The position numbers and the translations under genes are program-made. Positions 11,497 through 56,069 of a stretch of 64,000 bases of DNA are shown here, piece after piece. The number at the start of each line of letters is the position of its first letter. Position 1 is the first letter of the stretch. Source of the stretch: Candidatus Poriferihabitaceae bacterium. Its GTDB lineage: Bacteria; Pseudomonadota; Gammaproteobacteria; Arenicellales; Poriferihabitantaceae. Location: assembly GCA_965223465.1 (NCBI GenBank), contig OZ245025.1, positions 2,509,900-2,573,899 on the forward strand, in the 5' to 3' direction. The notes below the pieces were generated by a model. The model worked only from the letters and a program-made list of their open reading frames with translations, ran no database searches and was not told where the DNA came from.

Positions 11497-12693
11497 TTAT
11501 GATGAAACAAAGTCGCTAATTTCCTTAAACAAAACCTTCCAGGCTGGTTCCTCTTCCAATATCACATGATTACGGCTTTCCAGCATAACAAAGCTTGCGT
11601 CTTTTATACCTCCGGCTAGTTTTTTACCTTGCTCAAACGGCTGTATTCCATCATTTTTAGCATGGAAAACTAATGTTGGTGCTTTAATGCTCCTTAGTAG
11701 ATTAGACACATCAAATAGATCTACTGACTCTCGAATTCTAGCTGCATTTTCAGGTGATGTTGATACACGTTGTAATTCGGTAAGGGAGTCTAATTGTTGT
11801 TTTGTTCCATCTGGAATGAACATAGACGCAAAGGCTTGAATAAAATTACTGTTGGGCTTGCCCCATCCATGGCGGATAAGTGTTAATAGCGCTTCGGCTT
11901 TTTCTAATTCTTCATTTTTGGCTCTTAGGAAACGACCGCGCACATAACCACCATGCAAAATCAGATGACTGACTCGCTCGGGATGTTTAACTGCATAGGC
12001 AACTGCGATGGGAACCCCCTGCGAAGTACCATAAAGTGCAAATTTTTCCTTTTCAATCGTTTCGGCAATGGCCTCTAAATCTTCAACAAATGACTCTAGT
12101 GTAAGGTCACTTACGTCCCAATCGGATAGACCATTTCCACGTTGATCATAGCGTGTGACCGAATAATGCTTGCCTAACTCATTAAGAAAAGGGCGCCATA
12201 CGGGACTCTGCCAATCATACTCAAGATGAGTCAACCAATGCCCGGCTCGAACTAGTGGATAGCCCGACCCAGTGGTCGCAAAGGCAATTTGAGTCCCATC
12301 TGCCGATGTGCAGAATTTCACTTTCTGGGCTTGTCCATATTCTGAAAAAGGTTTTTCCTCCGCCCCATAAGAAATACTCTCATAGTTGGATTTAATTTTA
12401 GCAAGAAACCTAAACCCTTTGCGGGGTACAGTTTTGATTAGTTTTTGTTGTTTACCATTGTCCCCAATGATTTTCCTTAAAGCACTAATACGGGCACTGA
12501 TGGCCGAATCAGAAACAATGCGCCCATCCCAGACAGAATCAATCAACCTATCATGCGTAATCAATTCACCTGGATTTTCTACGAATAATTTCAATAAATC
12601 GTAGACCTGAGGCTCTACTTCAACTGCCTTACCATCGATATAGAGCTCATGACTGTCCACTCTCAAATCGATATTTTCAAATATATACTGCAT
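11497..12693 (-). CDS. One-component regulator: N-terminal OmpR/CadC-type winged-helix DNA-binding domain fused to an alpha/beta-hydrolase domain
   Basis: 398 aa. Residues 1-100 look like trans_reg_C (EPQVYDLLKLFVENPGELITHDRLIDSVW...VPRKGFRF) with no receiver domain. The rest is an alpha/beta hydrolase with nucleophile elbow GTSQG and a late H (SRNHVILEE). The gene is visibly more AT-rich than its flanks. Confidence 0.8.
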   Translation of the reverse strand: MQYIFENIDLRVDSHELYIDGKAVEVEPQVYDLLKLFVENPGELITHDRLIDSVWDGRIVSDSAISARISALRKIIGDNGKQQKLIKTVPRKGFRFLAKIKSNYESISYGAEEKPFSEYGQAQKVKFCTSADGTQIAFATTGSGYPLVRAGHWLTHLEYDWQSPVWRPFLNELGKHYSVTRYDQRGNGLSDWDVSDLTLESFVEDLEAIAETIEKEKFALYGTSQGVPIAVAYAVKHPERVSHLILHGGYVRGRFLRAKNEELEKAEALLTLIRHGWGKPNSNFIQAFASMFIPDGTKQQLDSLTELQRVSTSPENAARIRESVDLFDVSNLLRSIKAPTLVFHAKNDGIQPFEQGKKLAGGIKDASFVMLESRNHVILEEEPAWKVLFKEISDFVSS

Positions 12694-12859
12694 CGCGTAA
12701 TTTTGAAGGATTTCCCACCGGATGGCGAGCTGATTTCGATGCCTGATTAGAAATACAAGAAAACCACAAGATATTCACAAGGTCTAACTCAAGCCTTTAT
12801 TCCATCTTTAGATCACACTTTGACGATAAAAGTAACTAGAAAACTTAGGAATAAATGGT

Positions 12860-13072
12860 ATGAAAGATTTTAACGAAATTAATATGCTACGAAGGCCTGA
12901 CGGTTCGATCAATACAGAATTTTATGTGAGAAGAAGTCATCTAATACAAAGTATTGCAGCACATAATCTACTCAAAGCACTAGCGTGCACTATTTCGAGG
13001 TGGATTCATTTGCTATCGCTTCATTTAAAGCGATATACACAAAATATTGGATGCGGGTCAGGACGTGAGTGA
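12860..13072 (+). CDS. Hypothetical small ORF divergent from the wHTH-hydrolase regulator
   Basis: 70-aa ORF with a weak SD (aggaa) upstream. It reads into the nadD-remnant in a different frame. No family recognised and it could be spurious. Confidence 0.25.
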   Translation: MKDFNEINMLRRPDGSINTEFYVRRSHLIQSIAAHNLLKALACTISRWIHLLSLHLKRYTQNIGCGSGRE

Positions 13073-13139
13073 TATTTTCGATCCTAAATTTGAACACGAT
13101 AATCCGGAAAACATGTGTTATCAGTACAAGAATGAGTAA
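13029..13139 (+). pseudogene. Orphan, diverged copy of the nadD 3' end (last 36 codons plus stop)
   Basis: An ungapped alignment at a constant 1820-bp offset to nadD 11211-11300 gives about 74% nt identity by hand count. In-frame translation SDIHKILDAGQDVSDIFDPKFEHDNPENMCYQYKNE* compares with NadD TEIRRILAAGQDVSHFLDPEVEHYIAENQLYK*. There is no upstream coding continuation. Confidence 0.75.
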
Positions 13140-13562
13140 AGTCGATTCCCAGCTATAAAGATAAGTGAGGCGTATTAAGAAATGCGAGGAGGTTATCGGT
13201 TAATATCAAGCTTCTGTAGGGGAGTTCTCGTTGGCATACTTAATGATGCGAATACACCATCAAGGCTGTTCAACTACGTTTGAGATTTGTTAGGAATCAG
13301 GGCTTGGCTACTGCCCTTCTTGAGCAAACGTACGAAAAAATTATGATTTCAATTGAGTAAGCTAAATAAAAGAACATTTAAAAGTAAAAGTTACTGCTCT
13401 GTTCACCGCCTTGCCATTAAGAAGCTTCATAAGGAGTAGGTTGGATGGTAAGAGCGCGCTTAGCCCAACAACCGAGAATATGATAGCAAGAACTGATAGA
13501 AATATTTTCATTTAATCTATTCAACAAGTAATTTTGCACAAAACGCCGGCTAATATGTTGTT

Positions 13563-13787
13563 TTAATAATGCGGTGGTCGTTCATCTTCAGGTGATGATG
13601 GCTGTGTTTGGATATCCTCAGCCATTGCCTTAAACCTATCTTGCAAATGCGTGATCTGAACTCTGGTCAGATCAAGCTGTTTGGCCTGTTCATATACCAC
13701 CTGATTTAGCTCATCAAGGGTGAGCTCTAAATGCGCGAGTTTTGATTCCAGATTTTCAAAGCGTTGATTCATGGTATAAGCGATCAT
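13563..13787 (-). CDS. slyX: SlyX family protein
   Basis: 74 aa. Coiled-coil RFENLESKLAHLELTLDELNQVV... ending ...ERPPHY, like E. coli SlyX (...PPPHY). Confidence 0.85.
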   Translation of the reverse strand: MIAYTMNQRFENLESKLAHLELTLDELNQVVYEQAKQLDLTRVQITHLQDRFKAMAEDIQTQPSSPEDERPPHY

Positions 13788-13865
13788 AAATAACCAGCCT
13801 AAGAATCTAGCAGCTTTCGCGCTGGCTTGTTAGACTTGAATCTTAATTTATCCAACGACACAATC

Positions 13866-14258
13866 ATGGCTGAGAAAAAAATCATCAGTACCCCTAGTGC
13901 GCCTGGCGCAATTGGGGCTTATTCGCAAGCAGTTCGAACCGGCAATACGGTATATATTTCCGGGCAAATTCCACTGGATCCAACGTCCATGCAATTGGTC
14001 GACGGTGGCTTTGAAGCGCAGGCCAGGCAGGTGTTTGAAAACCTCAAGGCAGTGGCAAATGCGGCAGGGGGCGACTTATCTGATGTCGTCAGAGCCACCA
14101 TCTATATGCTGGATTTGGCCAATTTCGCTCAGGTGAACGAAATCATGAGCGAGTATTTTGCGGAGCCCTATCCTGCCCGAGCCGCGGTTGGCGTGGCGCA
14201 ATTACCCAAAGACGCCACCATTGAAATGGATGCCATTTTGGTTCTGGGCGATGGCTAG
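13866..14258 (+). CDS. ridA: RidA/YjgF family reactive enamine/imine deaminase
   Basis: [36 protein letters not shown]...[21 protein letters not shown] is a typical RidA. I start it at ATG 13866; the ORF is open from 13827. Confidence 0.9.
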
Positions 14259-14338
14259 GCCATGCGGTTGATTCAGTAGTTTGGCATATCCGTACCATAA
14301 ATAAGCCGATTTCAGCGCTGGGTAAGCCCCTGACGACT

Positions 14339-16381
14339 TTGTCGGGCGTGGGCGTAGCGCTGGCTGAAAAGCTGGCGCGTCTTGGGCTGGACACCACGTT
14401 TGACCTTTTATTTCATTTACCGTACAAGTTTGAAGATCGCACACGGCTCACCCCAATCCATCAGCTTGGCCATGGTCAGCAAGCGCTTGTTTTGGGGGCG
14501 ATAGAATCCTGCCAGGTACAATTTGGTAGGCGTCGTAGCTTGCTGGTGGGTATAAATGATGCGGGTGCGCGTCTTGACATGCGGTTGTTCTATTTCAATG
14601 CCGGACAACAACGTGCGCTGGAACATGGACAATGGATAAGTTGCTATGGTGAGGCCCGTCAGGGCGTGCGTTGCCTGGAAATGATTCATCCGGAATATCA
14701 AGTCCACGCAATTGAGCCTGAAGATGTAACCAGCGATAGTTTAACGCCAGTCTACCCACTTACGGAAGGCATCACGCATACGCGCATGCGTAAGTTGATA
14801 CTGGCGGTATTGAAAGCTGAACTCAGCCAGGTTGAGGAATTATTACCCGACTCGATATTGGGCGAGCAAAGATTTATGCCCCTGGCCGACGCTTTACGTA
14901 CCCTACATACTCCGCAGCCAGACGATGATTTGGCTGCGCTGGCGGAACGTCGACATCCTGCGCAGCAACGACTGGCGCTAGAAGAATTGCTTGCGCATCA
15001 TCTGGCGCTACGCAAACTCAAACAAAAACGTATCGCACAAAATGCCCCGTTGATTCAGACCAATGGTAAGTCTTGGCCGGCGCTGCAAAAATCTCTAGGA
15101 TTTGCGCTGACCAATGCACAATTGCGCGCGATTGCTGAAATTGAACAGGATTTTACCGAAGCACGCCCTACCTTGCGTATGATCCAGGGGGATGTGGGAT
15201 GTGGAAAGACCATCGTTGCGGCCGCGGCTGCGCTGCATGTGGTGGATGCAGATTATCAGGTCGCAATAATGGCACCTACCGAACTATTAGCAGAGCAGCA
15301 TCGACAAAATTTTAACGCCTGGTGCGCGCCGCTGGGTATTGAAACCACGTGGCTCACCAGTCGTTTGCCTGCCGCAGAAAGAAAGACTGCGCTTTCGGCG
15401 ATAGAATCAGGCGCAGCAAAAATTGTCATCGGTACCCATGCGCTATTTCAGGAGAGCGTGACGTTTGCCAAACTAGGCTTAATTATCGTAGATGAACAAC
15501 ACCGCTTTGGGGTTGATCAACGCCTGGCGCTTAAAAACAAAGCGCAGATTGGGCAGCAAACTGCGCATCAAATTATCATGAGCGCGACCCCGATTCCGCG
15601 TTCGCTTTCGATGGTGTATTACGCAGATTTGGATGTCTCTAATATCGATGAGCTGCCACCTGGACGTAAACCTGTTATGACCGTGGTGCTACCCAACTCG
15701 CGGCGGGATGAGGTGCAAGAGCGCATTCGTGCAGCCTGTGCGCAGGGTCGGCAGGTGTACTGGGTGTGCCCCTTGATCGAAGAATCGGATGCGCTACAAG
15801 CAGAGGCCGCTACCGATGTTGCCAACAAGCTTTCTGGTGCCCTGAACGAACTCAAGGTCGAGTTGATTCACGGTAGAATGAAAGCCGTAGAAAAAGACCG
15901 ATTAATGCGCGCCTTTCGGGTGGGCGAAATTGATCTTTTGGTGGCGACAACCGTAATTGAGGTGGGCGTGGATGTACCCAATGCCAGTTTAATGATCATA
16001 GAAAATGCCGAGCGTTTAGGTCTAGCACAACTACATCAGTTACGTGGTCGGGTCGGCAGAGGGGATGCGCAGGCCGCTTGTGTGCTGATGTATCAGGCAC
16101 CCTTGGGTAAAGCAAGCCGCAGGCGTCTGGATATTATGCGCCAGACCAATGATGGGTTTGAAATCGCCAGACACGATCTAGAGTTTCGTGGCCCCGGAGA
16201 GCTGATGGGGACGCGTCAAACGGGTGAGCATCAGCTCAAAGTGGCAAATATCGTGCGTGATCAAGCTTTACTGCCGTTGGTTGAGCAGGCTGCACATGAG
16301 TTACGCCAGCATGAACCGCAGCAAATAGAAAAGATCATTGATCGCTGGGTTAAGCGTAAAGCACAATACGCAGAAGTGTGA
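14339..16381 (+). CDS. recG: ATP-dependent DNA helicase RecG
   Basis: 680 aa. Wedge domain plus SF2 helicase motifs (GDVGCGKT, DEQHRFG, QLRGRVGRG). The only canonical in-frame start is TTG 14339. The in-frame upstream codons (…KPLTTL) still resemble the conserved RecG N-terminus, so the start is uncertain. Confidence 0.92.
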   Translation: MSGVGVALAEKLARLGLDTTFDLLFHLPYKFEDRTRLTPIHQLGHGQQALVLGAIESCQVQFGRRRSLLVGINDAGARLDMRLFYFNAGQQRALEHGQWISCYGEARQGVRCLEMIHPEYQVHAIEPEDVTSDSLTPVYPLTEGITHTRMRKLILAVLKAELSQVEELLPDSILGEQRFMPLADALRTLHTPQPDDDLAALAERRHPAQQRLALEELLAHHLALRKLKQKRIAQNAPLIQTNGKSWPALQKSLGFALTNAQLRAIAEIEQDFTEARPTLRMIQGDVGCGKTIVAAAAALHVVDADYQVAIMAPTELLAEQHRQNFNAWCAPLGIETTWLTSRLPAAERKTALSAIESGAAKIVIGTHALFQESVTFAKLGLIIVDEQHRFGVDQRLALKNKAQIGQQTAHQIIMSATPIPRSLSMVYYADLDVSNIDELPPGRKPVMTVVLPNSRRDEVQERIRAACAQGRQVYWVCPLIEESDALQAEAATDVANKLSGALNELKVELIHGRMKAVEKDRLMRAFRVGEIDLLVATTVIEVGVDVPNASLMIIENAERLGLAQLHQLRGRVGRGDAQAACVLMYQAPLGKASRRRLDIMRQTNDGFEIARHDLEFRGPGELMGTRQTGEHQLKVANIVRDQALLPLVEQAAHELRQHEPQQIEKIIDRWVKRKAQYAEV

Positions 16382-16406
16382 TCCGATAATACGCCTTTAA
16401 CACGAG

Positions 16407-18224
16407 CTAGGCATGCTCTAGATCACGGTTAAAATCCCCTTTACGTTTTTTATGTTGTTTTTTGGCAACGGAAACACGCAGCGGGCATTTTTTGGTGTTT
16501 TTACAGTTTTCGCAGCGCATATCCGTCCAGGCATACGCTAGTGCATACGTTATGCGCGAGAAAAAATGATCGTCGCCGATCTTGTGGATCGAGTCAGTTT
16601 TATGCATGCTGAGCATAAACGGGCGCTTCATTCTGGCAATCAGCACGGTCACACCGGCGTTTTTAAAGCGTTCGCACAATTGGGTCAGCACCATCTCCCC
16701 GGTGGCGTCCAGCATGTTAATACCTTCGGCATCCAGTACGATAAATTTGACATCGGGATGATCTGCAAATACGCCCAGTAATTTGGTTTCAAAATAACCC
16801 GCATTGGCGTAGTACAACGACATATCAAAGCGTACCACAACGATATTCTTGCAAGTATTTAGTTCTGAGTGGATTTTAAGATCACGAAAAGTGGCATCAT
16901 GGTAACGACTGAGTTCAGCAAAGCGTGGCCGCATCGTACGATATATAAACAAAGCCATTGATAGGAATACGCCGACCAATATGCCCTTATCCAGATGTGG
17001 TGCCATGATAAGGGTTAATATGAATGTTATCACTGCGACGATACCATCGTGTTTTTCCGCTTTCCAGGCGTGTACAATTGGCTCAATTTTCACTAATCCA
17101 ACAACCGCCATAATGATCACAGCGGCCAACGTCGCTTGGGGTAGGTGGTAGAGAAGTGGGGTTAAAAACAGCAAGGTGATACCGACCAGGATTCCCGTCA
17201 CAATGGATGAAAACCCGGTACGTGCGCCCGCGTCGATATTGACCGCTGAACGGGAAAAGGAGCCCGATACCGGGTAGCCGTTGAATAAGCCTGATACCAC
17301 GTTGGATAGGCCTTGGCCGACTAATTCCTGGTTGGCATCTAGACGTTGTCGAGTGCGGGCAGCCATCGCTTTAGCAATCGAGATGGCTTCCATAAAGCCA
17401 ATTAGGGCAATGACAATCGCAGCAGTGAACAATTGAATCACAATATCCAAGTTAAAGTCGGGAATGGAAAAAGCAGGCAGACCTTTAGGTACTTCACCCA
17501 CCACTGCACCTCCTTCCTCAGCATAACCGGTGAATTTTGAAATCAAAATAGTTGCTGCAACTGCGATTAAAACGCTCGGCAAGGCTGGTTTCCATTTTTT
17601 TAACCCATACATCAAACCAATGGCAAAAATGGAAAAAGCCAGGGTGGGCCAATGGGTATTTTCGATGGCGGCTTGAATAAGGTGGTAAACGGTTTCGTAA
17701 TGATGCTCGGATTTTTCTACACTGACGCCAAATAATTTCCCCAGCTGTGAAGTGGCGATGATAATCGCACCTGCATTGGTAAAGCCGACCACAACTGGAT
17801 GTGATAGAAAATCTACCAGTACGCCCATACGCAACAAACCGAGCGACATTTGAAACAAACCAACCAGAATTGCGAGTACCGTTGCATAGGCGAAAAATGC
17901 CTCAGGGCCACCTGTTCGCGCGAGGGGTTCGAGTGCGGCTGCTGTCATTAAAGAGACCACTGCAACCGGCCCAGTGGCCAGCTGTCTGGAGGAGCCAAAA
18001 ATGGCTGCCACCATGGGTGGTAAAAATGAGGCGTATAAACCGTAATAAGCGGGCAAGCCTGCTAGCTGTGCGTAAGCCATCGATTGGGGCACTAGAACCA
18101 GTGCGACGGTTAATCCGGCGAGAATATCAACTTTTAGGGTTTCCTTATCCCGCAGCTCGCGAATCTGATAAATGGTCGGAAACAGCATGCTACGAAAGCG
18201 CTTAAAAAATTCAGTCGGTGTCAT
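16407..18224 (-). CDS. SulP family inorganic anion transporter with C-terminal STAS domain
   Basis: 605 aa. SulP signature regions (AYAQLAGLPAYYGLY, multi-TM core), a STAS domain, and a Cys/Lys-rich tail (CENCKNTKKCP...KKQHKKRK). Confidence 0.88.
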   Translation of the reverse strand: MTPTEFFKRFRSMLFPTIYQIRELRDKETLKVDILAGLTVALVLVPQSMAYAQLAGLPAYYGLYASFLPPMVAAIFGSSRQLATGPVAVVSLMTAAALEPLARTGGPEAFFAYATVLAILVGLFQMSLGLLRMGVLVDFLSHPVVVGFTNAGAIIIATSQLGKLFGVSVEKSEHHYETVYHLIQAAIENTHWPTLAFSIFAIGLMYGLKKWKPALPSVLIAVAATILISKFTGYAEEGGAVVGEVPKGLPAFSIPDFNLDIVIQLFTAAIVIALIGFMEAISIAKAMAARTRQRLDANQELVGQGLSNVVSGLFNGYPVSGSFSRSAVNIDAGARTGFSSIVTGILVGITLLFLTPLLYHLPQATLAAVIIMAVVGLVKIEPIVHAWKAEKHDGIVAVITFILTLIMAPHLDKGILVGVFLSMALFIYRTMRPRFAELSRYHDATFRDLKIHSELNTCKNIVVVRFDMSLYYANAGYFETKLLGVFADHPDVKFIVLDAEGINMLDATGEMVLTQLCERFKNAGVTVLIARMKRPFMLSMHKTDSIHKIGDDHFFSRITYALAYAWTDMRCENCKNTKKCPLRVSVAKKQHKKRKGDFNRDLEHA

Positions 18225-18531
18225 TATTATTTTTTAAGGATGCTGAAACCGATCAGTGCAATGTTGCTGCAAACAGTAACAAAGCGACACAAAGTGATGC
18301 TTATCCATTACATATCGCCCGCCCAATCGCGCATTTTGATTATTCATACTTTGGGTTGTTCCCTACATGGAGTTTGGTTCGCGTTTGGCGGTAAAGTTTC
18401 CCTTGAGGAAGGCAAATTCCAGAAAACCGCTACTAGCGCCCGATCGGTTCCCATGATAAATTTATCCGCTATGGTTTTTGTTAACACCCGATTTTTACCC
18501 CTAAATTTACTTCCATCCGGCCGATTATAGC

Positions 18532-20028
18532 GTGAATCCATCCTCTGCTGAAATTTCACTTGCCTCGCGTAAAGGATTTGATGATCCCCTGTATCCACGG
18601 TTTGCAAAAATCTTGCCAGAACACTGTATTGTCGCGGATGAAGACTCCATCCGACCGTATGAATGCGATGGTTTGACCGGTTACCGGCAAATGCCGCGCC
18701 TGGTGCTGTTGCCAGAAACGGTCGAGCAGGTGCAGGATATCATGCGTATATGCCAAGCAACCAAAACACCGATTGTGCCACGCGGAGCAGGAACCTGTCT
18801 CTCCGGCGGGGCAACGCCGCATCCGGAAGGGGTAGTGCTATCGGTTGCCAGGCTGAACAAAATTCTTAAGATTGATCAAGCAAATCGCACCGCAACGGTT
18901 GAGCCGGGTGTAACCAATTTAGCGATATCGCAAGCAGTGGAGCATCTTGGGTTGTACTACGCACCCGACCCTTCCTCACAAATAGCCTGCACTATTGGTG
19001 GCAACGTCGCCGAAAATGCAGGTGGTGTGCATTGCCTGAAGTATGGTCTGACGGGGCACAATGTGTTACAGGTAAAACTGGTGAGCCTGGAAGGAGAGAT
19101 ACTCAATTTTGGTAGCGAAGCACTAGAAACACCGGGCTATGATTTGCTGTCGCTAATTGTTGGCTCGGAGGGAATGCTCGGTATTGTGGTCGAAGTGGTT
19201 GTGCGCCTATTACCTAAACCCGCCCAAATTGCCGCGCTGATGGCGCAGTTCGATGACGTAGAGCAGGCGGGTAACGCGGTCGCTGCGGTGATCGCTGGCG
19301 GGATTATTCCCGCGGGCTTTGAGATGATGGATAAGGCAGCAATTTCTGCAGCGGAAGATTTCGCGCATGCGGGTTACCCTAAAGATGCGCAGGCCATTTT
19401 GCTTTGCGAGATTGATGGTGTCAGCGAAGAAATTGACCCCCAGCTTGATCGATTAGAAGATTTACTCAAACAAAATGGCGCGGTAGATATTCGGCGCGCG
19501 CGTAATGAAGCGGAAAGAGTTCGGTTTTGGTCAGGGCGGAAAAATGCTTTTCCAGCGGTCGGTCGTATCTCGCCGGATTATTATTGCATGGATGGCACGA
19601 TACCGCGAAAGGCGCTTGCACAAGTGCTGAAGAAGATCAGCGATCTATCCACCCAATACGGTTTGCGCGTTGCGAATGTGTTTCACGCGGGTGACGGGAA
19701 TTTGCATCCATTGATTTTGTATGATGCGAGTGCGCCAGGCGAGTTTGATAAAGCCGAAGCGCTGGGAGGAGAAATACTAGATGAATGCATTGCTGTCGGT
19801 GGCACCATCACCGGTGAGCACGGTGTTGGCCTGGAGAAGATTGATCGAATGTGTGTCCAGTTCACTGATGCTGAGCGAGCGCATTTTCTCTCGATCCGCC
19901 AATGCCTGGATCCAGATGGCTTATTAAACCCCGGCAAAGCGATCCCTACGCTGAACCGGTGCGCCGAGTTTGGCGCAATGCATGTTCATAATGGCGAGCT
20001 TGCGCATCCCGAGCTAGAACGGTTTTAG
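18532..20028 (+). CDS. glcD: Glycolate oxidase FAD-linked subunit GlcD
   Basis: 498 aa with GTG start. FAD-binding PCMH domain (PRGAGTCLSGGA). First gene of a glcD-glcE-glcF array. Confidence 0.88.
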   Translation: MNPSSAEISLASRKGFDDPLYPRFAKILPEHCIVADEDSIRPYECDGLTGYRQMPRLVLLPETVEQVQDIMRICQATKTPIVPRGAGTCLSGGATPHPEGVVLSVARLNKILKIDQANRTATVEPGVTNLAISQAVEHLGLYYAPDPSSQIACTIGGNVAENAGGVHCLKYGLTGHNVLQVKLVSLEGEILNFGSEALETPGYDLLSLIVGSEGMLGIVVEVVVRLLPKPAQIAALMAQFDDVEQAGNAVAAVIAGGIIPAGFEMMDKAAISAAEDFAHAGYPKDAQAILLCEIDGVSEEIDPQLDRLEDLLKQNGAVDIRRARNEAERVRFWSGRKNAFPAVGRISPDYYCMDGTIPRKALAQVLKKISDLSTQYGLRVANVFHAGDGNLHPLILYDASAPGEFDKAEALGGEILDECIAVGGTITGEHGVGLEKIDRMCVQFTDAERAHFLSIRQCLDPDGLLNPGKAIPTLNRCAEFGAMHVHNGELAHPELERF

Positions 20029-41917: not shown

Positions 41918-42571
41918 TTATTGTACTGTGTTTAGTCCTAGGACTTCCCAGTCCTGCATACCCCCTCGATACCACTTAATCTTATGGGCTGGATAGCCAA
42001 GACTCAGCAGTGTTTTGATGGCAACCGGGGATTGGCCGCACCACATGCCGTTACAGTATAAAACCAGCGTTTTGGCTTTGCCAAAATCAAACAGACCTTC
42101 AACTTCTTGTACGCTAAATTGTTCTAGCAAGATCTCGGAAATATCAATAATGTTGGCGCCGCCTTGTAGTGCAAGTTGGCTCCATGGAATGTTGATTGAA
42201 CCTGGAATATGTCCGCGTTTGTGCCATTGTGGCGTGCGTGAATCTTGCACCACGACAGGCTCTCCACGATGCATCGCCTGAAGATACTCAATCACTTCAA
42301 GTTCTCCTATGGTTTCCACGCCGGGTGCGATGGTGCTGGGTTGAATACAAAAAGGTGGGCAAGGCCGTGAAGTTAACGCGAAATCGTCGTTAATGGTGTT
42401 GCTGTTGTCCTGATTGCGGCTAATGCTTACTTTTTTACCGTCAACCATAAACTCGATGCGCATTTGATTGCCCGAGCCAATTCCGACCGGTTTGTCCTGA
42501 GCGTAGGCGGGGTGCCAGCCAAAGAATAAGGTGGAAAGGCTGAAAATGCATAATTTTGTAAAGCGCTTCAT
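41918..42571 (-). CDS. Secreted rhodanese-domain sulfurtransferase-like protein
   Basis: 217 aa with a signal peptide. The C-terminal rhodanese domain has an active-site loop YCNGMWCGQS. The N-terminal about 80 aa are unassigned. Confidence 0.8.
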   Translation of the reverse strand: MKRFTKLCIFSLSTLFFGWHPAYAQDKPVGIGSGNQMRIEFMVDGKKVSISRNQDNSNTINDDFALTSRPCPPFCIQPSTIAPGVETIGELEVIEYLQAMHRGEPVVVQDSRTPQWHKRGHIPGSINIPWSQLALQGGANIIDISEILLEQFSVQEVEGLFDFGKAKTLVLYCNGMWCGQSPVAIKTLLSLGYPAHKIKWYRGGMQDWEVLGLNTVQ

Positions 42572-42635: not shown

Positions 42636-43280
42636 TTAGGTTCCGTAAAGCGAAAGTCCAATCGCGTGTTTGGAGGCATGAGATTCGCGCAATGAAAATT
42701 GTTCCGATAGTTCGTCAACAAACTGCTGGGTTTGCGGTGCGTGGAGATCACCGTTCAATAGCTCTAATTCGACTTCATACAGATTGCATTGGTGACCGTT
42801 GGCGCTGATTTTTCCTGCGTCAGTGACAAACTCAAGCATTGATTGTCCAACTTTCAGCATGCGTTTGCTGCGTAGCATATCGACATTGACGCGCGGTAAC
42901 AAAGGGGTGGGTTCAGGAAATAATGTCTGCATCGCATCAGCGATTTTTCCAGCCGGAATATCGGTGACACACTCGAAACTATGTTCAACCAACTGCTCCA
43001 TTTCTTCACAGCTAGAAACACCATTGATTATTTCATTATTGCGCTTTAGCGTGCTGACGTGTCGATCGCCTTCATCACGCGTACGTAACGACCAACGTAA
43101 CTCGCGTAAGTGCCAATCCGGTGTATCATAATATATGGCACTGAACATTTGTGAGTGGCTGGTACTGTCTTCGTCATGCATGGCATTAGCGATCAAGTCA
43201 CTTTCCCATAAGCGATCTAGCGTTGCCTGATCTGGGGCGGTCAGTTTTATTTCCTGTTCGATCTGGTGTTTCGGTTGCAT
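42636..43280 (-). CDS. CYTH-domain (triphosphate tunnel metalloenzyme) protein
   Basis: ExExK signature IEQEIKL near the N-terminus, at a length typical of CYTH. I start it at ATG 43280 (MQPKHQ...). The ORF is open to 43337, but that start would overlap the leuS start. Confidence 0.75.
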
Positions 43281-43335
43281 TGAGGTAGAATCTCGCCCTT
43301 TATTTGAAGCAAAAAGCGAATTTACGCGAAATACC

Positions 43336-45807
43336 ATGCCAATGGAATACGATTTTGCCCAAATTGAAGCTGATGTACAGGCTTATTGGGAACAAACCGA
43401 ATGTTTTAAAGTTACAGAGAACAGTGATAAACCAAAATATTACTGTTTGTCGATGTTGCCATATCCCTCGGGTCAGCTGCACATGGGGCATGTGCGAAAT
43501 TACACCATTGGTGATGTTATCAGTCGTTATCAGCGCATGCTCGGTAAAAATGTCTTGCAACCTATGGGATGGGATGCGTTTGGTCTACCTGCTGAGAATG
43601 CCGCAATAAAAAACCAGATGCCCCCTGCGAAATGGACTTACGAAAACATCGCGTATATGAAAAAACAGTTAAAACGGCTGGGGTTCGCCTATGACTGGAG
43701 CCGCGAACTCGCGACTTGTACACCGGAATACTATAAATGGGAACAATGGTTTTTCACCAAATTAGTGGATAAGGGGTTGGCCTATAAAAAAATGGCCGAA
43801 GTGAACTGGGACCCGGTTGAACAAACCGTACTCGCAAACGAGCAGGTCGTTGATGGTAAGGGTTGGCGCTCAGGTGCCACCGTAGAACGTAAGAAAATCC
43901 CGCAATGGTTTATCGCGATATCCAAATACGCGCAGGAACTGCTGGATGGCATTGACAAGCTTGCGGGTTGGCCAGACGCGGTACGCACCATGCAGCGTAA
44001 TTGGATTGGTCGCTCAGAAGGTTTGGAATTTAGCTTCGAAGTGCCTGAGCATGAGCCGGTTGCGGTATATACCACCCGCCCAGATACCATTATGGGCGTG
44101 ACTTTCGTTTCCGTTGCTGCCGAACACCCACTGGCACTAAGCGTGGCCAAGAATAACCCAACGGTAGCCAATTTCATCGATGATTGTCGGCGCATGAAAA
44201 CTTCTGAGGCCGATATGGAAACCATGGAGAAAAAAGGGGTGCCGCTGGGTATCCAGGCTATCCATCCGATATCCGGCGAACGGGTTGAAATTTGGGTGGC
44301 CAATTTTGTGTTGATGGGATACGGTACTGGTGCAGTCATGGCGGTACCGGCGCATGACGAGCGCGATTGGGAGTTCGCTAAAAAGCATCACATCGACATT
44401 CGGCCGGTTATTCAGCCCGCAGACGATTCAGTACACGATTTTGAGCAAGGCGCGTTTGTCCGTAAAGAAGATATTGTGGTGGTCAATTCAGGGCAGTTTG
44501 ATGGCCTGGATTTTAGCCAGGCGTTTGAGGCTATTGTCGATTTTATGGAAAAGGCAGATAAGGGCAGGCGCACCATCAACTACCGAATACGTGACTGGGG
44601 TGTGTCGCGACAGCGTTACTGGGGTTGCCCAATTCCGATCATTTATGACGAACAAGATGGACTGCACGTAGTGCCAGTCGAGGATTTGCCGGTGACCCTG
44701 CCCGAAAATGTCGAATTTTCCGGCGTAAATTCACCAATTAAGTCTGACCCGGATTTTATTAATACTACGGTTCCGGGTAGTGGTGAGCCTGGAAAACGTG
44801 AAACCGATACTTTTGATACGTTTTTTGAATCTTCCTGGTATTTTGCGCGCTACACCTGCCCAGACAGCGACGAGGCAATGCTGGATGAACGCGTGAATTA
44901 CTGGATGCCGGTAGATCAGTATGTTGGTGGTATTGAGCACGCTGTTTTGCACCTGCTGTATGCGCGTTTTTTCCATAAGCTGATGCGCGATGAGGGCCTG
45001 GTAGACAGTGATGAGCCGTTCACGAACTTGCTTACCCAGGGCATGGTATTGAAAGACGGGAGCAAGATGTCCAAATCCAAGGGCAATACGGTTGATCCAC
45101 AATCGATGATCGACCAATACGGTACCGATACAGTACGCTTGTTCATGATGTTTGCCTCACCCCCTGAGCAATCCTTAGAATGGAATGATGATGCTGTCGC
45201 AGGTGCACATCGATTTTTGCGGCGCTGGTGGTCTATGGTCAATCGCTACATAGAAAATCTGCAAGCCAATCTAGTGAAGCTGAACGATAAAGGGTGGTCG
45301 GTGGTTTCAGACAGCTCAGCAAAGGCATTGCGTAATACGCTACATACTTTGCTGAAAAAAGTTGATCATGATTACCAGCGCCATCAGTTTAACACGGTGA
45401 TTGCAGCGTCAATGGAGTTACTGAATGCCTTGGAAAAAATTGAGCCAGGTGACAACCCAGAGCTGGCGCAAGCTTATTGTGAAGCGAATATAGCGATGCT
45501 CAAAATTCTGGCGCCGATCAGCCCTCATATTGCGCATGTAATATGGGAAAAGATTGGGGGTGCTGGCAATATTATTGATGCCCCGTGGATACAGGTAGAT
45601 AAATCTGCATTGCTTACCGAAACGATTTCATTGGTGGTTCAAGTCAACGGCAAAAAGCGCGATCAAATTAAGGTAGCGCGCGATGCGAGTAAGGATAAAA
45701 TTGAACAAGCTGCGTTAGCCGCTGAAGGTGTGAAAAGGCATCTGCAAGATCAGCCTGCCAAGAAAATAATAGTGGTGCCGGGGCGATTAGTCAATATCGT
45801 GGCCTGA
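43336..45807 (+). CDS. leuS: Leucine--tRNA ligase
   Basis: 823 aa. HIGH-type motif ([15 protein letters not shown]) and KMSKS motif. Confidence 0.97.
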
Positions 45808-51510: not shown

Positions 51511-52200
51511 TTAGTGTGAGCCTACCATTCTACCTCTGGAGGCCATTCTGCCACGTGAAGCCATTCTGCCCCGGGAAGCCACTCGACCTCGGGATGCCAT
51601 TCGACCACGAGAACTCATCATTTCTTCCTCGTCTTCGCTGTAAATAGGATCGATGAGGATGTCTTCCAGCTTTCCGACTTCTACGTCGATGGCCATGGAG
51701 GTTTCATGTTTGTCCATTTTCCATACCCGAATATCGGAAGCAAAACGCCAACCCTTACCTTCAAGCCCGGTGTTTTGGGTTTCAAATCTCGGTAAACCTG
51801 GCCCTTCGTTCGCATCGGGGCATTCGCCATCTCCCCATACCAGATAAATCAGCGGATAGGGTAACTTGAAATACTGCCCTTCATACGAAAAGCTATAGAT
51901 ACGCGCCAGTCTGGGTGTTTTTCTTTGGGTGGCTTCGGCGGGCGGATCATGAGGTTTGCTATCGCCAGAGGTAGCCTTTTCTTCCTCAATAGATTGCGGG
52001 CCGAAGCGATCTCGTAGTAAGGTTTTTTCGGTCTCATCCGGCGGCATATCCAACCGTTCACCCGCGCCCCGCGAATCAAACGCAGAACCGGCTAATTCGT
52101 CTCGTACAAAACGCAAACTTTTAAAAGGTTTACCGAAAAGATATATTTTTGAGACTTCATACAGATCTTCCGTCCCATGAATAATCGGGTCTAACGCCAT
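51511..52200 (-). CDS. Hypothetical protein with an acidic patch and a C-terminal (A/S)SRGR(M/V) x5 tandem repeat; candidate substrate or precursor of the adjacent YcaO-TfuA pair
   Basis: 229 aa with a strong SD (caaggaggtaagtttcATG). It ends ...YSEDEEEMMSSRGRMASRGRVASRGRMASRGRMASRGRMVGSH*. It is the last gene of the co-oriented ycaO-tfuA-HExxH string. The N-terminal about 190 aa match no family I recognise. Confidence 0.75.
   Translation of the reverse strand: MALDPIIHGTEDLYEVSKIYLFGKPFKSLRFVRDELAGSAFDSRGAGERLDMPPDETEKTLLRDRFGPQSIEEEKATSGDSKPHDPPAEATQRKTPRLARIYSFSYEGQYFKLPYPLIYLVWGDGECPDANEGPGLPRFETQNTGLEGKGWRFASDIRVWKMDKHETSMAIDVEVGKLEDILIDPIYSEDEEEMMSSRGRMASRGRVASRGRMASRGRMASRGRMVGSH
51526..51615 (-). 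repeat. Five in-frame 18-nt tandem units encoding xSRGR(M/V)
   Basis: The units are read off codon by codon. Arg codons vary (CGT/CGA/CGG/AGA), as do Ser (TCT/TCC/TCA), Ala (GCA/GCT/GCC) and Gly (GGT/GGC), while the peptide is invariant except for one M/V. Confidence 0.9.
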
Positions 52201-52275
52201 GAAACTTACCTCCTTGGATAGCTTGGATGTCTAGACATTAACAGTATCAGAAAATGCGAAATATGTCATGTATTG

Positions 52276-53541
52276 TTAAAAAGGAATTTTTCGTCGCCTA
52301 AAAACTTCTTCAATTTCATCTAGATAGTGGCCAGAAGTCAATTCTTGATCCGCTTTTATCAGTGTATATACAACTTGTGGGAAATCCAGATCCCAGGATA
52401 ATTGCTCCCAGTTTAGGCTGAGTAGTACCCCTAAATAATCGCGCGCGTCAACCAGTGCCTTTTTAAAGCCTTCAGAATTTTGCATGTAGGCCTGATCAAA
52501 CATTGCCTGGATTTCAGCCTGATGCTCGGTTGATTCTGTGAATCCGCGTGATCGCTGATCAAGCGCCTCGTCTATTAAGTTTTCCGCCACTAGATTGTGC
52601 TGAAATACTTCAACCAGCAAATCAAACAAGCCGCCAGTAAAAGGTAGGCTCATTTCGTGTAGTTGTTTGATACTTAATTGTTCAAGTGGTGTATTTGGTG
52701 AGGGCACATGGTGCATTTGCAGATTATTACTCGCCATTCTGATCTGGCGGGTGTCGGATTCCTCCCCTACCCGATTGAGTATATTTCGGATGTATAGGTT
52801 TCCGCTGGTTTCATCCAGCAGGCGATCCAGCACCGAATTGAAATGCAGCAACGAAATAATCGCCACCATATCACTGGCGGTTTCATGAAAGGCGAAAAAC
52901 GCTGGGGTGGCCTTATCATCATCTGGCATACCAATTACGGAATAAAGAATGGTGTGTCCAAGTTCATGTGCCAGCACATCAAAATTGAGATTGAAAGGAA
53001 ATTTCTGGCCCGTATCATCGCGGCTATATCCCATTTCGATAAATCCAAAGCCAGCGTGGGCATTATCCCAATCCAGCCAGGGGACCAGCTCTAGGCGCTC
53101 AAATTGTGATTGAAAACTCCATTCAATCTCGCGCTGGAAATAGGTTTCCCAAATATCCAGCACCCAGCGCAAGGTACCGTACATGTGCGCTGCCTCAAAT
53201 TGGTGGGTGCCGACTTCTAGATGATCGTAGTGGCCGTCGCGACCAGGCAGTGCTGGGGGGTGTTGTTGGTCATTGTAAGGCGGCAGGAAATTGTTTTCAT
53301 AATGTGTTTTATCTATCGCATCGACAATATACATCCGATGGTCAGCTGGTCCGGGCTGTATTTCAGATGGGCTCAGCGACACCCAAACCGTCTCTGGTTC
53401 CTGATAATCGCTCAATAGGGGGGACTGTGGGAACAAGCGAAAGCGCGTCCCGTGTTCGCGAAAATCAAGCGCAAGCTCGCTCAGCGCACAGCAGGGGCAA
53501 TCGGCGAGCGATCCTTGCTGATGTCTATGTGCGGTTTCCAT
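52276..53541 (-). CDS. Thermolysin-like (gluzincin) HExxH...ExxSD metallopeptidase-motif protein
   Basis: 421 aa. VLAHELGHTILYS followed 24 residues later by FHETASD (compare thermolysin HELTH...NEAISD). N-terminal Cys cluster CPCC. The start overlaps the tfuA stop by 17 nt. Confidence 0.75.
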   Translation of the reverse strand: METAHRHQQGSLADCPCCALSELALDFREHGTRFRLFPQSPLLSDYQEPETVWVSLSPSEIQPGPADHRMYIVDAIDKTHYENNFLPPYNDQQHPPALPGRDGHYDHLEVGTHQFEAAHMYGTLRWVLDIWETYFQREIEWSFQSQFERLELVPWLDWDNAHAGFGFIEMGYSRDDTGQKFPFNLNFDVLAHELGHTILYSVIGMPDDDKATPAFFAFHETASDMVAIISLLHFNSVLDRLLDETSGNLYIRNILNRVGEESDTRQIRMASNNLQMHHVPSPNTPLEQLSIKQLHEMSLPFTGGLFDLLVEVFQHNLVAENLIDEALDQRSRGFTESTEHQAEIQAMFDQAYMQNSEGFKKALVDARDYLGVLLSLNWEQLSWDLDFPQVVYTLIKADQELTSGHYLDEIEEVFRRRKIPF

Positions 53542-54859
53542 TGGAAGAATCTACCTCCTGGTAAAGATATTCCCCTAAAATCATAGCATAAAGTTCGTCC
53601 ACGTCCCTACAACCCAGATTAAATGCATAATCTTCTATGCGGGACGGCATTTCCATGCGCAGTTGTTGGGTGAAATACCAATCACATAATTGTAATTTAT
53701 CCACTTCATTTAATTGCTCGAGCTCAGGTTTGTGTTCAAGTTTAGCTAGCGTCAACTTTTTATCGTTCGCACGTTGCGTAAGGTCACTTATCGCACCTGT
53801 TTGGTTTAAGTAATTGAGTAAAATATGCACGCTTAGTGCGTTGGAAAAAGAATCGGTAGTGGATTGGTTGATATGTGCCTGCCAGAGCTGTGCTAACAGT
53901 TTATCCAGAGCCTCAGGTGCTTGATGTAATTGATTAAGGTCTGTGTTTTTGACAGAATTTTGTGGGGTTGAGCAACCCAGCATGGTTTGCAACGCTCGAT
54001 TCAAGGCCTGGAAGTAAGCCGGGCCTTGTAGTCGAAGCTCATCTAGTGCCGGGCTATCGATGGCGTGCGATTGATCGATCTCTTCAATGGCGTTCTGCCA
54101 TTGGGACGTATGTTGAAATGTGCTCGAATGACGCTTGTGCGATGCAATTGGTTCAGTAACGTATTCGCTAATCGCTTTCAACATGGTGATTGCGTCGGCT
54201 TGTTTTTGGTCGACCGCGTTCTTATGCAACCAATTCTTAAGCTTAGCCAAATCCTGCTGTGCGACACCCTGGTGCTTTGCCTGTTTGAGTACTGTGGTGT
54301 ACTGGCGGTCAGCGTAAAACAGTGACTTGGCCAATTGCCCCAATTGCTGGCAGCTGTCCTCATCGATAATATTTTTCTGGACTGCTTTAGCCAGAGAAAA
54401 GCGAATATTGACCATCGCATCGCTGGCGGCCGAATAACCCATTTCGGCGGGGCCATGTACAACAGCTACCTCGTCATCGTCTTCGAAAGCTTCATCATTG
54501 AATGGCGGCAGTATACCGGTAGAATAGGCTTCGTAGATCTTGCCATAACCGAGCATACCAAACTGGTCTAGTTCGGCTGCGCGTAAAGCCCCCATGCTCG
54601 CGGCGCCAAACACCAAGGTGCCTTGATTCATTGCCCATAATATTTCTTTGTGCCACACTGCTGGGACCTGATTGAAATATCCATCAACAATGCCGATTAT
54701 TTTTGGCCGAAACAAAGTGGTGATGCGATACACATCACCGTACTTTACCGGGGGTAGATACGTGGCCTCAAGAAGTTGCTCGGCCTTGGCAAGGCCTAAA
54801 CTTGGACCCACAAATATGAATATTTCGTCCCTGCCCATGTTATTGACCAAGGATATCAA
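53525..54859 (-). CDS. TfuA-domain protein with a long C-terminal extension
   Basis: 444 aa. The N-terminal about 230 aa carry TfuA hallmarks (FVGPSL, LPPVKYGDVYR, IGIVDGYF, HKEILWAM, GAASMGALRAAEL, DDDEVAVVHGP). The C-terminal about 215 aa are unassigned. It overlaps or abuts the ycaO stop (alternative start ATG 54838). Confidence 0.85.
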   Translation of the reverse strand: MISLVNNMGRDEIFIFVGPSLGLAKAEQLLEATYLPPVKYGDVYRITTLFRPKIIGIVDGYFNQVPAVWHKEILWAMNQGTLVFGAASMGALRAAELDQFGMLGYGKIYEAYSTGILPPFNDEAFEDDDEVAVVHGPAEMGYSAASDAMVNIRFSLAKAVQKNIIDEDSCQQLGQLAKSLFYADRQYTTVLKQAKHQGVAQQDLAKLKNWLHKNAVDQKQADAITMLKAISEYVTEPIASHKRHSSTFQHTSQWQNAIEEIDQSHAIDSPALDELRLQGPAYFQALNRALQTMLGCSTPQNSVKNTDLNQLHQAPEALDKLLAQLWQAHINQSTTDSFSNALSVHILLNYLNQTGAISDLTQRANDKKLTLAKLEHKPELEQLNEVDKLQLCDWYFTQQLRMEMPSRIEDYAFNLGCRDVDELYAMILGEYLYQEVDSSNGNRT

Positions 54860-56069
54860 ACGGTAAATCTAAGAGGGCTTTGGCTCTTGGACCTGGTACG
54901 TAATCGCTATGCCAATGACCGTAGGCGCCCTCCAAGCCGGGGATGACCACTTTAACGACCGCTAACCCCAGATCCGGTTGGCTCAGATCAACCGCGATAA
55001 CCTGTTGGACCCCAATAGCGCGCAGTTGGGTTAAACACTGCGCCAGATCATCCTCTATGGTGTCAAATTCATAGCTTATTAGCTGATCAAATTGCTTTTC
55101 CGGGCGATGGTTTTGGAGCTGTACTTGCCCTTGTAGGCGACGTTTTAAGCGTTTTTTGGGTTGGTATTCCGACCAACCGATATCATCGCGACTTCCCGCG
55201 ATGAAGGTAGTTCGCGCCTGCGCTGCCTCGGTTAGGGCGCGTGCTAGGGCGATCTCTTTGGAGGGGTGGCAGCCAGCGCCAAATTCAGGGTCGGCCCAAT
55301 CGTGTTCATCTCCCATTGCCAGACAAATGAAAGCCGGCAAATCTAGGTCGCTGGTCATGTCCCATATTTTCACTTTGATCCTGGCGGCTTTGAACTTTTC
55401 CATTAACCAGCGGCAGTTTCGATCTGCAATCGATGTTGGATCCACGCTAGTTGCTGCCTGGGCGTGCAGCGCGCATTGGTTCCAGAGCGCTTCCGCGTCG
55501 CGTTCAACCACTTCAGTAATCGCATGACAACAGGCCTCCTTGAAGGTATTTCCCGATGCCAACCCGTTGGTATTAGCGGCAAAATGACCCGCTCCTTTGT
55601 GCCCGGGTAAAGTGTAATCCGTACTCACGATTTCATAGGGTACCCAGCATGCTTGCTCGCTGAGTAAGTTAAGGCCCTCTATCCAATAAATCGGCTCAGA
55701 CGGATTTAATTTTTTGCGTCCACTTCTCGCGAGCAACTTGGTGTTGGCCAGGGGAATTTTATCTTTTAGCTGATGCGTGCTCGCGTAGCGCAGTGGGTGG
55801 CTGATGTTTTCAGCATGGTAGGTCTCAACCGATTCCATGATCGCGGATACTTTAGCGGCTTCGAGGGTCGAGCCTTTGCCCTGCGAGACGGATATGGATC
55901 GGGATTGTGGTCGAAATGCAGTATAAGTAGGGATGCCCACGCGATCCAGACCGGTAATATTGGCGGTGCGGCTTATGCCCATTTGCTTCAACAATGGTTG
56001 CACCTGGTTAAGCGTGTCAGTAGGAGTAAGCGTTCGATGGGTACCCAAACGATAGGCTTTATTTTCCAT
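54840..56069 (-). CDS. YcaO-domain protein (TfuA-associated type)
   Basis: 409 aa. The YcaO core pattern is present: SVSQGKGSTLEAAKVSAIMESVETY, TNGLASGNTFKEACCHAITEVVERDA and the C-terminal region. A TfuA gene lies immediately downstream. Confidence 0.88.
   Translation of the reverse strand: MENKAYRLGTHRTLTPTDTLNQVQPLLKQMGISRTANITGLDRVGIPTYTAFRPQSRSISVSQGKGSTLEAAKVSAIMESVETYHAENISHPLRYASTHQLKDKIPLANTKLLARSGRKKLNPSEPIYWIEGLNLLSEQACWVPYEIVSTDYTLPGHKGAGHFAANTNGLASGNTFKEACCHAITEVVERDAEALWNQCALHAQAATSVDPTSIADRNCRWLMEKFKAARIKVKIWDMTSDLDLPAFICLAMGDEHDWADPEFGAGCHPSKEIALARALTEAAQARTTFIAGSRDDIGWSEYQPKKRLKRRLQGQVQLQNHRPEKQFDQLISYEFDTIEDDLAQCLTQLRAIGVQQVIAVDLSQPDLGLAVVKVVIPGLEGAYGHWHSDYVPGPRAKALLDLPFDILGQ

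Follow-up and report, generated by a model that had tools for sequence, protein, structure and literature searches.

A widespread five-gene module combining a predicted thioamide-forming YcaO-TfuA pair, a thermolysin-like protease, an arginine-repeat-tailed protein and a cyclic-nucleotide cyclase sensor

To our knowledge, YcaO-TfuA pairs in Proteobacteria mostly lack a known substrate, and the question raised by the locus described here is what such a pair modifies. The locus lies in a window of 64,000 nucleotides (nt), this being the whole stretch of DNA analysed, from a Candidatus Poriferihabitaceae bacterium (contig OZ245025.1, positions 2,509,900 to 2,573,899). It consists of genes for a YcaO enzyme, a TfuA protein, an HExxH metallopeptidase and a protein of 229 amino acids (aa) with a repeated C-terminal tail, together with a gene for a nucleotidyl cyclase. 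These were identified as a five-gene module comprising a predicted thioamide-forming enzyme pair, a thermolysin-like protease, an Arg-repeat-tailed protein and a cyclic-nucleotide cyclase sensor, which is widespread and undescribed. No description of it was found in the literature searched, in agreement with a previous reading of the DNA made from its letters alone (the sequence-only reading), which knew of no described system with such a gene combination. The 229-aa family is the best candidate substrate of YcaO-TfuA, and that the module is a conserved, probably cytoplasmic unit with this protein as its shared substrate is a reading to which we give about an even chance. What it makes is probably either a tail modified on the protein or a set of modified peptides, with a link to signalling inside the cell.

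The four co-oriented minus-strand genes that the sequence-only reading had described as an operon were all found to be present as open reading frames (ORFs; Table 1), with an order conserved across loci: it was identical in 6 of 6 genome loci and in 54 of 54 metagenome loci with a contig reaching far enough upstream. The junctions were also as described. The tfuA stop overlaps the start of the HExxH gene by 17 nt (53525-53541), and a 75-nt gap (52201-52275) precedes the gene of the 229-aa protein, which has the Shine-Dalgarno sequence AAGGAGGT 7 nt 5' of its ATG. The ycaO and tfuA genes, said to overlap or abut, do either according to the start codon: the longest TfuA ORF (TTG start) overlaps ycaO by 20 nt, and an internal ATG at 54838, probably the true start, lies one base past the ycaO stop codon. 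Purifying selection was found on all five genes (dN/dS 0.066-0.143) in comparison with the closest relative (L072), a locus with full synteny whose 229-aa protein is 88% identical to that of the window. By this comparative evidence, the four minus-strand genes are a real, conserved unit and not a product of chance; what the sequence-only reading overlooked was the fifth member, the cyclase gene. In one Arenicellales genome (L002:9221-11675), an insertion of about 2.4 kb was found to separate the gene of the protease from that of the repeat-tailed protein, a pair that adjoins in all other loci. Promoter and terminator scans of the window gave background-level results, while Rfam and tRNA scans of it found nothing.

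The tail of the 229-aa protein is the feature that most directly suggests a substrate. It reads EDEEE-MM-SSRGRM-ASRGRV-ASRGRM-ASRGRM-ASRGRM-VGSH, in which the five SRGR(M/V) units previously noted after an acidic patch are present, the first being SSRGRM. Throughout the clade of the window the layout is an acidic patch, three to seven hexapeptides of the form x-[S/A/G/F]-R-x-x-x (Arg every 6 residues) and a final unit with a cap, F-R-x-x-M-x-G-P-H-Q-x-x, the cap being xGPHQ(D/E/N)x in most relatives and VGSH in the window. The two to three residues after Arg vary among orthologues (GRM, GKM, SKM, SNM, ANM, MAM, MRM, GDM, GSA, GAA, TSA) and are uniform within any one protein. Distant clades carry units such as GMNAR, GMHAR, GANVR, SGARV, SGAKV, SGSKV, SGQRARV, SGAHARV, GAARMQIS and SRADMT, with one cap per clade (GGGNSD, RGDASD or ARHRFKx). 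Across the family the units are 5-8 residues long. Three or more tandem units were identified in 130 of 176 distinct tails (at least 74%, the detector being strict), with a period of 6 in 91, 5 in 24 and 7 in 11. Exactly one Arg or Lys per unit was found in 111 of these 130 repeat tails, directly preceded 90% of the time by Ser, Ala or Gly. A further regularity that was considered, one hydrophobic residue per unit as a protease P1' site, failed, as only 78 of the 130 consensus units had it and others, such as GAAASR, have none.

The near-identity of the units of the window was found to reside in the peptide and not in the DNA. In the window the units share 87% amino-acid identity, and the same codon was used in 13 of 46 comparisons of identical residues, against 11.5 expected from the codon usage of the gene. 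The relative L072 has Lys (AAA/AAG) where the window has Arg (CGA, CGA, AGA, AGA, AGA) in five of five units, with adjacent synonymous sites differing freely. Because codons are shared at the level of chance and all five units carry the same Lys/Arg change, unit identity is maintained by selection on the peptide. Recent gene conversion as the source of the identical repeats was ruled out for the window by the same chance-level codon sharing. Across 49 proteins, codon sharing between units was 0.47 against 0.34 expected, and some relatives (L033, L034, L036) do show similarity between units at the DNA level. Identical units under peptide selection, together with a copy number ranging from 3 to 7 among close relatives, are the pattern of multi-core precursors.

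The identities of the two enzymes proposed by the sequence-only reading were secured by Pfam search. YcaO matched the full model of PF02624 (1-325) with E = 8.5e-83 and 278.8 bits (cutoff 25.7), and TfuA matched PF07812 over residues 59-185 with E = 1.5e-44 and 151.1 bits (cutoff 30); the dN/dS of YcaO against L072 was 0.094. The best NCBIfam model for YcaO was TIGR03266 (McrA-glycine thioamidation YcaO), at 254.5 bits and below the equivalog cutoff of 365, and TfuA scored 225.9 bits against NF033432 (TfuA-related McrA-glycine thioamidation protein), just under the cutoff of 235.2. By these scores, both proteins are nearest to the thioamide-forming clade, yet both fall below its equivalog cutoffs. 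An azoline-forming (TOMM/SagD-type) function was not indicated for YcaO: TIGR03604 gave 150.4 bits against a cutoff of 219.25, and no E1-like or dehydrogenase partner was found in the window. Since the GMNAR, GANVR and GAHAR units contain no Ser, Thr or Cys, the only chemistry open to YcaO on them would be that of the backbone, and the partnership with TfuA points to thioamidation.

The TfuA of the window is a long form with a conserved C-terminal extension of about 200 aa (residues ~235-444) that carries the motifs VLxELRLxG and LQLxDWYF..LGxEMPDDI and for which no match was found in Pfam or the PDB, including by sequence search of solved structures. This extension accompanies repeated tails and is absent from four short-TfuA loci (about 27 loci against 4), and docking of the 229-aa protein through its N-terminal domain may be its role. 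A broader rule, by which long TfuA would track the whole 229-aa family, was ruled out by Phyllobacterium, Mesorhizobium and Rhizobium sp. K102, where a short TfuA occurs with a divergent single-tail member.

Table 1. Features of the module and its surroundings in the window
Feature	Positions	Strand	Basis
YcaO, 409 aa, ATP-dependent backbone-activating enzyme	54840-56069	minus	PF02624
TfuA in its long form, 444 aa when read from TTG (longest ORF)	53525-54859	minus	PF07812 and C-terminal extension of about 200 aa
C-terminal extension of TfuA	53525-54150	minus	
HExxH zinc metallopeptidase, predicted thermolysin/fungalysin fold, 421 aa	52276-53541	minus	AlphaFold model and Foldseek
229-aa protein, whole ORF	51511-52200	minus	ORF list
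229-aa protein, N-terminal part: domain (residues 1-188), then EDEEE and MM (residues 189-195)	51616-52200	minus	conserved motifs
Five tandem hexapeptide units (residues 196-225), candidate core peptides	51526-51615	minus	strict 6-residue Arg period
C-terminal cap VGSH and stop codon	51511-51525	minus	alignments
Double zinc ribbon / class III nucleotidyl cyclase / AAA_16 (STAND) / TPR protein, 1092 aa	48178-51456	plus, convergent with the operon	Pfam
Rhodanese gene	41918-42571		
CYTH gene	42636-43337		
Low-GC patch	12001-14000		

The combinations in which these genes occur elsewhere were then compared. In the clade of the window and in a locus with GMNAR tails (L073), cyclase, YcaO, long TfuA, protease and repeat-tailed protein occur together, in strict order in all loci long enough. 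The same five genes were identified in Phyllobacterium zundukense, Mesorhizobium sp. WSM1497 and Rhizobium sp. K102, here with a short TfuA and a divergent family member bearing a single conserved, non-repeated tail, and about 42 Rhizobium plasmids match the K102 locus. Paracoccus kondratievae (L017) was found to carry a divergently oriented cyclase-TPR gene, YcaO, long TfuA and a family member, with Crp nearby and no protease. Conversely, about 49 Rhizobium plasmids (e.g. L013) carry the cyclase-TPR gene, the protease and a member whose tail repeats SRSGGxM units, and lack both YcaO and TfuA. Azospirillum sp. B510 (L016) and S. meliloti GR4 (L077) have a cyclase-STAND gene, an ORF of 65-98 aa, YcaO and a short TfuA (with Crp in addition in Azospirillum), and neither the protease nor the 229-aa family. 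On pRL11 of R. johnstonii 3841 (L076:6668-11258), a BTAD-type regulator, a 47-aa ORF, YcaO, a short TfuA and an 88-aa ORF were identified. The 229-aa family is thus the partner common to both enzyme sets (YcaO-TfuA in Paracoccus, the protease in Rhizobium), and a small ORF (47-98 aa) 5' of YcaO was found only in the three loci where this family is absent, which fits the family as the substrate of YcaO-TfuA. The view of the 229-aa protein as substrate, put forward by the sequence-only reading, is therefore upheld in so far as the protein is the best candidate, because the repeat tail is a selected feature of the whole family.

Several observations weigh against this assignment. On the Rhizobium plasmids the repeat tail is kept without YcaO-TfuA, and the basic role of the tail is therefore independent of any thioamide; since the tail exists and repeats there, thioamidation would be an optional layer. 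The sequence-only reading had itself held that homologues commonly found without YcaO/TfuA neighbours would tell against the substrate, and these plasmids, with their cyclase, HExxH protease and repeat-tailed homologue, partly present that situation. The universal partner in the module is the cyclase and not the 229-aa protein, and Azospirillum and S. meliloti pair it with YcaO-TfuA in the absence of the family. The complementary pattern of the small ORFs comprises three loci only. No exporter, immunity gene or ThiS was found near the module in the window, where the sole nearby transporter gene is that of the housekeeping ATPase ccoI. Lastly, a leader would not usually be better conserved than the enzymes, as the N-terminal domain core is here.

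In a different explanation, YcaO-TfuA acts elsewhere (on the protease, the cyclase-STAND protein or some peptide that is not annotated), and the protease and the 229-aa protein are a separate pair, of protease and substrate or of protease and regulator, that only shares a cyclase-centred regulon. In its favour, the cyclase is the only universal partner, accompanied in Azospirillum and S. meliloti by YcaO-TfuA alone and in Rhizobium by the protease and the repeat-tailed protein alone, and full-length proteins, MCR and uL16, are known targets of YcaO thioamidation (PMC13063428). This explanation is unlikely, although it deserves to be kept in view, as the small ORF directly 5' of YcaO is confined to loci without the 229-aa family, Paracoccus has YcaO-TfuA and a family member without the protease, and the TfuA extension tracks the repeated tails.

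As for the N-terminal part of the 229-aa protein, the sequence-only reading had taken the large domain as a leader. The domain is defined by the motifs LFGKPF, MPPxRxERxLR, ARIYSFSYEGHYYKLPRPLLFLV and DIRVWxVD, and its core (residues 95-190) was found to be the most constrained part of the module (97% identical to L072, dN = 0.014); because of this, it may do more than serve as a leader. No Pfam or NCBIfam match, PDB sequence match or Foldseek fold match was obtained for the protein, for which the AlphaFold model was moderate (pLDDT 58.7) and left the tail disordered. A word-based search had returned only 34 relatives; by profile search of 1.84 billion cluster representatives (50% identity clusters), 548 representatives were identified at E <= 0.001 and 382 at E <= 1e-10. 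The family of the HExxH protein, which has no name, matched more than 1000 clusters (the best 120 all at least 50% identical), and together with the occurrence of the module in cultured rhizobia these numbers show that the module is not rare. Two proteins of the window gave no match when compared with PHROGs. Some distant members of the 229-aa family contain an inserted domain of about 100 aa that is lacking in the protein of the window (P0226, residues 37-176; P0202, residues 30-116) and matches PHROG families of phage tail fibre, head decoration and virion structural proteins with E down to 6e-20.

The constraint on this core is also what favours a second alternative, by which the 229-aa protein would work as a regulator or adaptor for the cyclase-STAND protein and keep its tail, thioamides tuning the resistance of that tail to the protease as a timer or switch; this would be a modification at the level of the protein rather than a peptide natural product. 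The housekeeping gene context without an exporter, the C-terminal cap, which is conserved within clades, differs between them and offers a possible ligand for a TPR domain, and the constant presence of the cyclase are consistent with it. Identical units in variable copy number are, however, more typical of multi-core precursors, and a dedicated thermolysin-fold endopeptidase suggests cleavage. We regard this alternative as doubtful, and it differs from the shared-substrate explanation only in the later fate of the tail.

Under the shared-substrate explanation, the N-terminal domain would serve as a docking domain and the clade-variable tail as an array of near-identical units of 5-8 residues. 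YcaO would use ATP to activate one backbone amide per unit and TfuA would supply the sulfur, giving a thioamide, for which the likely site, by analogy with thiovarsolin, is the bond between the small residue and Arg; the near-universal [S/A/G]-Arg pair of the tails fits such a site before Arg. The thermolysin-fold peptidase would then cut the tail, either releasing hexapeptides or trimming it. Thioamides hinder proteolysis, and YcaO-TfuA and the protease may therefore cooperate or oppose one another. The cyclase-STAND-TPR protein would couple the module to cyclic-nucleotide signalling, either by sensing the product through its TPR domain or by controlling the operon, often through a nearby Crp-type regulator. 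The gene identities and the conservation of the module are observed, as are the match of the protease to a known fold and the selection for identical units; the thioamide and its site, the cleavage and the direction of signalling are predicted from them. In the window, a rhodanese gene and a CYTH gene lie beside leuS, about 10 kb from the module; a rhodanese could in principle supply sulfur, the window being the one locus looked at for this pairing.

The thermolysin-like character proposed for the HExxH protein from its sequence was supported by structure prediction. No Pfam or NCBIfam family, propeptide models included, was matched at E up to 0.1, and sequence search of solved structures with the family found nothing. 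Its AlphaFold model (pLDDT 87, pTM 0.89) was matched by Foldseek to M36 (fungalysin) and M4 (thermolysin, LasB, ProA) structures with probability 1.00 and E down to 8e-7, at TM-scores of 0.5-0.69 and identities of 9-16%. On the basis of this modelled fold, the protein is classed as a thermolysin-fold gluzincin. The motif HELGH...ETASD (H192, E193, H196, E220, D224) is invariant in 46 homologues. One Bacillus homologue carries the depositor label 'M36 family metallopeptidase'. The protein shares with thermolysin and fungalysin the two-lobed fold, the HExxH motif, Glu as third zinc ligand and the ExxxD motif. It differs from them in the low identity, the absence of a Pfam match and of a propeptide match, and its genetic tie to one small protein family. 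Its location is probably cytoplasmic, because no signal-like hydrophobic stretch was seen at the N-terminus of the translation (as judged by eye, without a signal-peptide predictor) and no family or propeptide model was matched. Homologues were also identified in Nostoc (L014), beside ferritin-like and radical SAM genes, and in Bacillus mycoides (L015), beside a histidine phosphatase gene; as neither locus has YcaO, the 229-aa family or the cyclase, the protease family has other partners outside Proteobacteria.

A homologue of the fifth gene, the cyclase, was found to adjoin the module wherever the locus was long enough for this to be judged. In most cases it lies directly upstream in the same direction, its stop overlapping the ycaO start, and otherwise it is convergent downstream, as in the window. 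Pfam matches were obtained to DZR, Guanylate_cyc, AAA_16 and TPR_12. A STAND-like architecture is indicated by AAA_16 (E = 9.5e-19, residues 265-447) with TPR_12 at residues 806-873, the latter below its Pfam cutoff. The cyclase domain scored 51.5 bits against PF00211 (cutoff 21.9) and keeps both metal-binding Asp residues and the transition-state Asn and Arg; these four catalytic residues occur in the cyclase of the window and in the majority of module cyclases. At the positions (residues ~100-220) that we take, from mammalian cyclase motifs, to specify the substrate, the pair is Glu/Ser in the clade of the window and Arg/Ala in most full modules, against Lys/Asp in adenylate cyclases. Lys/Asp was seen only in Rhizobium L013 and in one cyclase of L068. 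Because the pair is not Lys/Asp, the product may be a cyclic nucleotide other than cAMP. A Crp-type gene, with a cyclic nucleotide monophosphate (cNMP)-binding domain and a helix-turn-helix, was found near the module in several loci; in the window no Crp-like cNMP-binding protein was identified.

The cyclase also resembles the STAND regulators that stand beside biosynthetic genes (cyclase-ATPase-TPR or BTAD/AfsR-like) in having an effector domain, an AAA_16 NTPase and a TPR sensor. On pRL11 of R. johnstonii, a BTAD-type regulator occupies the position of the cyclase beside YcaO-TfuA. Unlike the BTAD/AfsR-like regulators, the cyclase would have a cyclic-nucleotide output instead of DNA binding, and it has E/S or R/A specificity pairs and an N-terminal double zinc ribbon. 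Large regulators (BTAD or cyclase) were found to recur beside YcaO-TfuA pairs of Proteobacteria that differ in their substrates.

A role in anti-phage defence or conflict, of Pycsar or STAND type, in which the cyclase-STAND protein senses infection and the other genes are effectors or decoys, is very improbable: the match of the cyclase domain to PycC models of PADLOC (E = 1.1e-18), the STAND-like architecture, the non-canonical specificity residues and the insert that distant family members have in common with phage tail-fibre and head-decoration proteins would suit it, but PycC shares its superfamily with ordinary class III cyclases, the other four module proteins had no PADLOC match, the partner is a Crp-type regulator and not the adjacent membrane or TIR cNMP-binding effector expected of Pycsar, and the context is syntenic and housekeeping (leuS, lptE, holA, gyrB and ccoI/fixH, an arrangement kept in L072) with no defence island.

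The closest known system, and the only YcaO-TfuA system characterised so far that has a repeated core, is the thiovarsolin pathway of Streptomyces varsoviensis (VarA, VarY, VarT), in which YcaO-TfuA thioamidates the Pro-Arg bond in each VarA repeat and varA, varY and varT alone suffice for the thioamide (PMC6511847). Like the module, it has adjacent YcaO and TfuA genes and a precursor with C-terminal repeats containing Arg (up to five units in VarA), and its thioamide precedes Arg, as is predicted for the [S/A/G]-Arg site here. Both families span non-repeating to multi-repeat tails, here from the single-tail rhizobial members to tails of 3-11 units. VarA, however, is short with an ordinary leader, whereas in the present protein, of 229 aa, the repeats follow a strongly conserved domain of about 190 aa; no homology between the precursors is apparent, no dedicated comparison having been made. 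The var cluster lacks a dedicated protease and encodes an MFS exporter, a heme-oxygenase-like enzyme and an ATP-grasp ligase, in contrast to the thermolysin-fold protease, cyclase-STAND gene, long TfuA and lack of an exporter in the module, and its host belongs to the Actinobacteria while those of the module are Proteobacteria. The module thus resembles a thiovarsolin-like repeated-core system that differs in its protein-sized precursor, dedicated protease and cyclic-nucleotide coupling. A global survey of thioamidated clusters for peptides that are made by ribosomes and modified after translation (RiPPs) lists many uncharacterised proteobacterial clusters, none of them with the features of the module (PMC8120280).

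A second comparison is with the McrA thioglycine and with Met82 of E. coli uL16 (PMC13063428), MCR and uL16 being the only YcaO-thioamidated protein substrates known to that 2026 paper. As in these cases, the candidate substrate is a folded protein, the context is chromosomal and housekeeping, and there is no export; the module and the McrA system are further alike in that YcaO and TfuA score best against the McrA-thioglycine models, though below their equivalog cutoffs. Unlike in McrA and uL16, the target would be a disordered, multi-copy tail instead of a single buried site, and the module includes a protease and a cyclase; TfuA is missing from the uL16 system.

Two observations lie apart from the module. 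On the metagenome contig of L007, five tandem 29-aa genes (19115-19667), about 9 kb from the module, resemble a separate multi-copy precursor cluster, their neighbours at 16336-19024 being genes for a 495-aa protein without a Pfam match, an aminotransferase and a response regulator. In the window, a patch with a GC content of 0.41 (against about 0.47 for the window) was noted, and 12693-14339 contains no ORF of 150 aa or more.

For proteobacterial YcaO-TfuA pairs, the module offers a concrete and widespread candidate substrate, a family of 548 clusters with a conserved domain and a clade-variable repeat tail. The full module is present in cultured strains (Mesorhizobium sp. WSM1497, Phyllobacterium zundukense Tri-48, Rhizobium sp. 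K102 and related Rhizobium plasmids), and the Rhizobium plasmids constitute natural variants with and without YcaO-TfuA. Neither a dedicated thermolysin-fold protease nor a link to cyclic nucleotides has been described for thioamidated peptides. In its most far-reaching form, which we consider quite improbable, the module would be a self-contained intracellular system: thioamidated Arg units, freed by the dedicated protease as thiopeptides that resist proteolysis, would bind the TPR domain of the STAND cyclase and lead to a non-cAMP cyclic nucleotide read by a Crp-type regulator; if such a pathway from peptide to second messenger is true, it would represent a third kind of YcaO-thioamidated protein substrate and the first signalling role for a thioamidated peptide.

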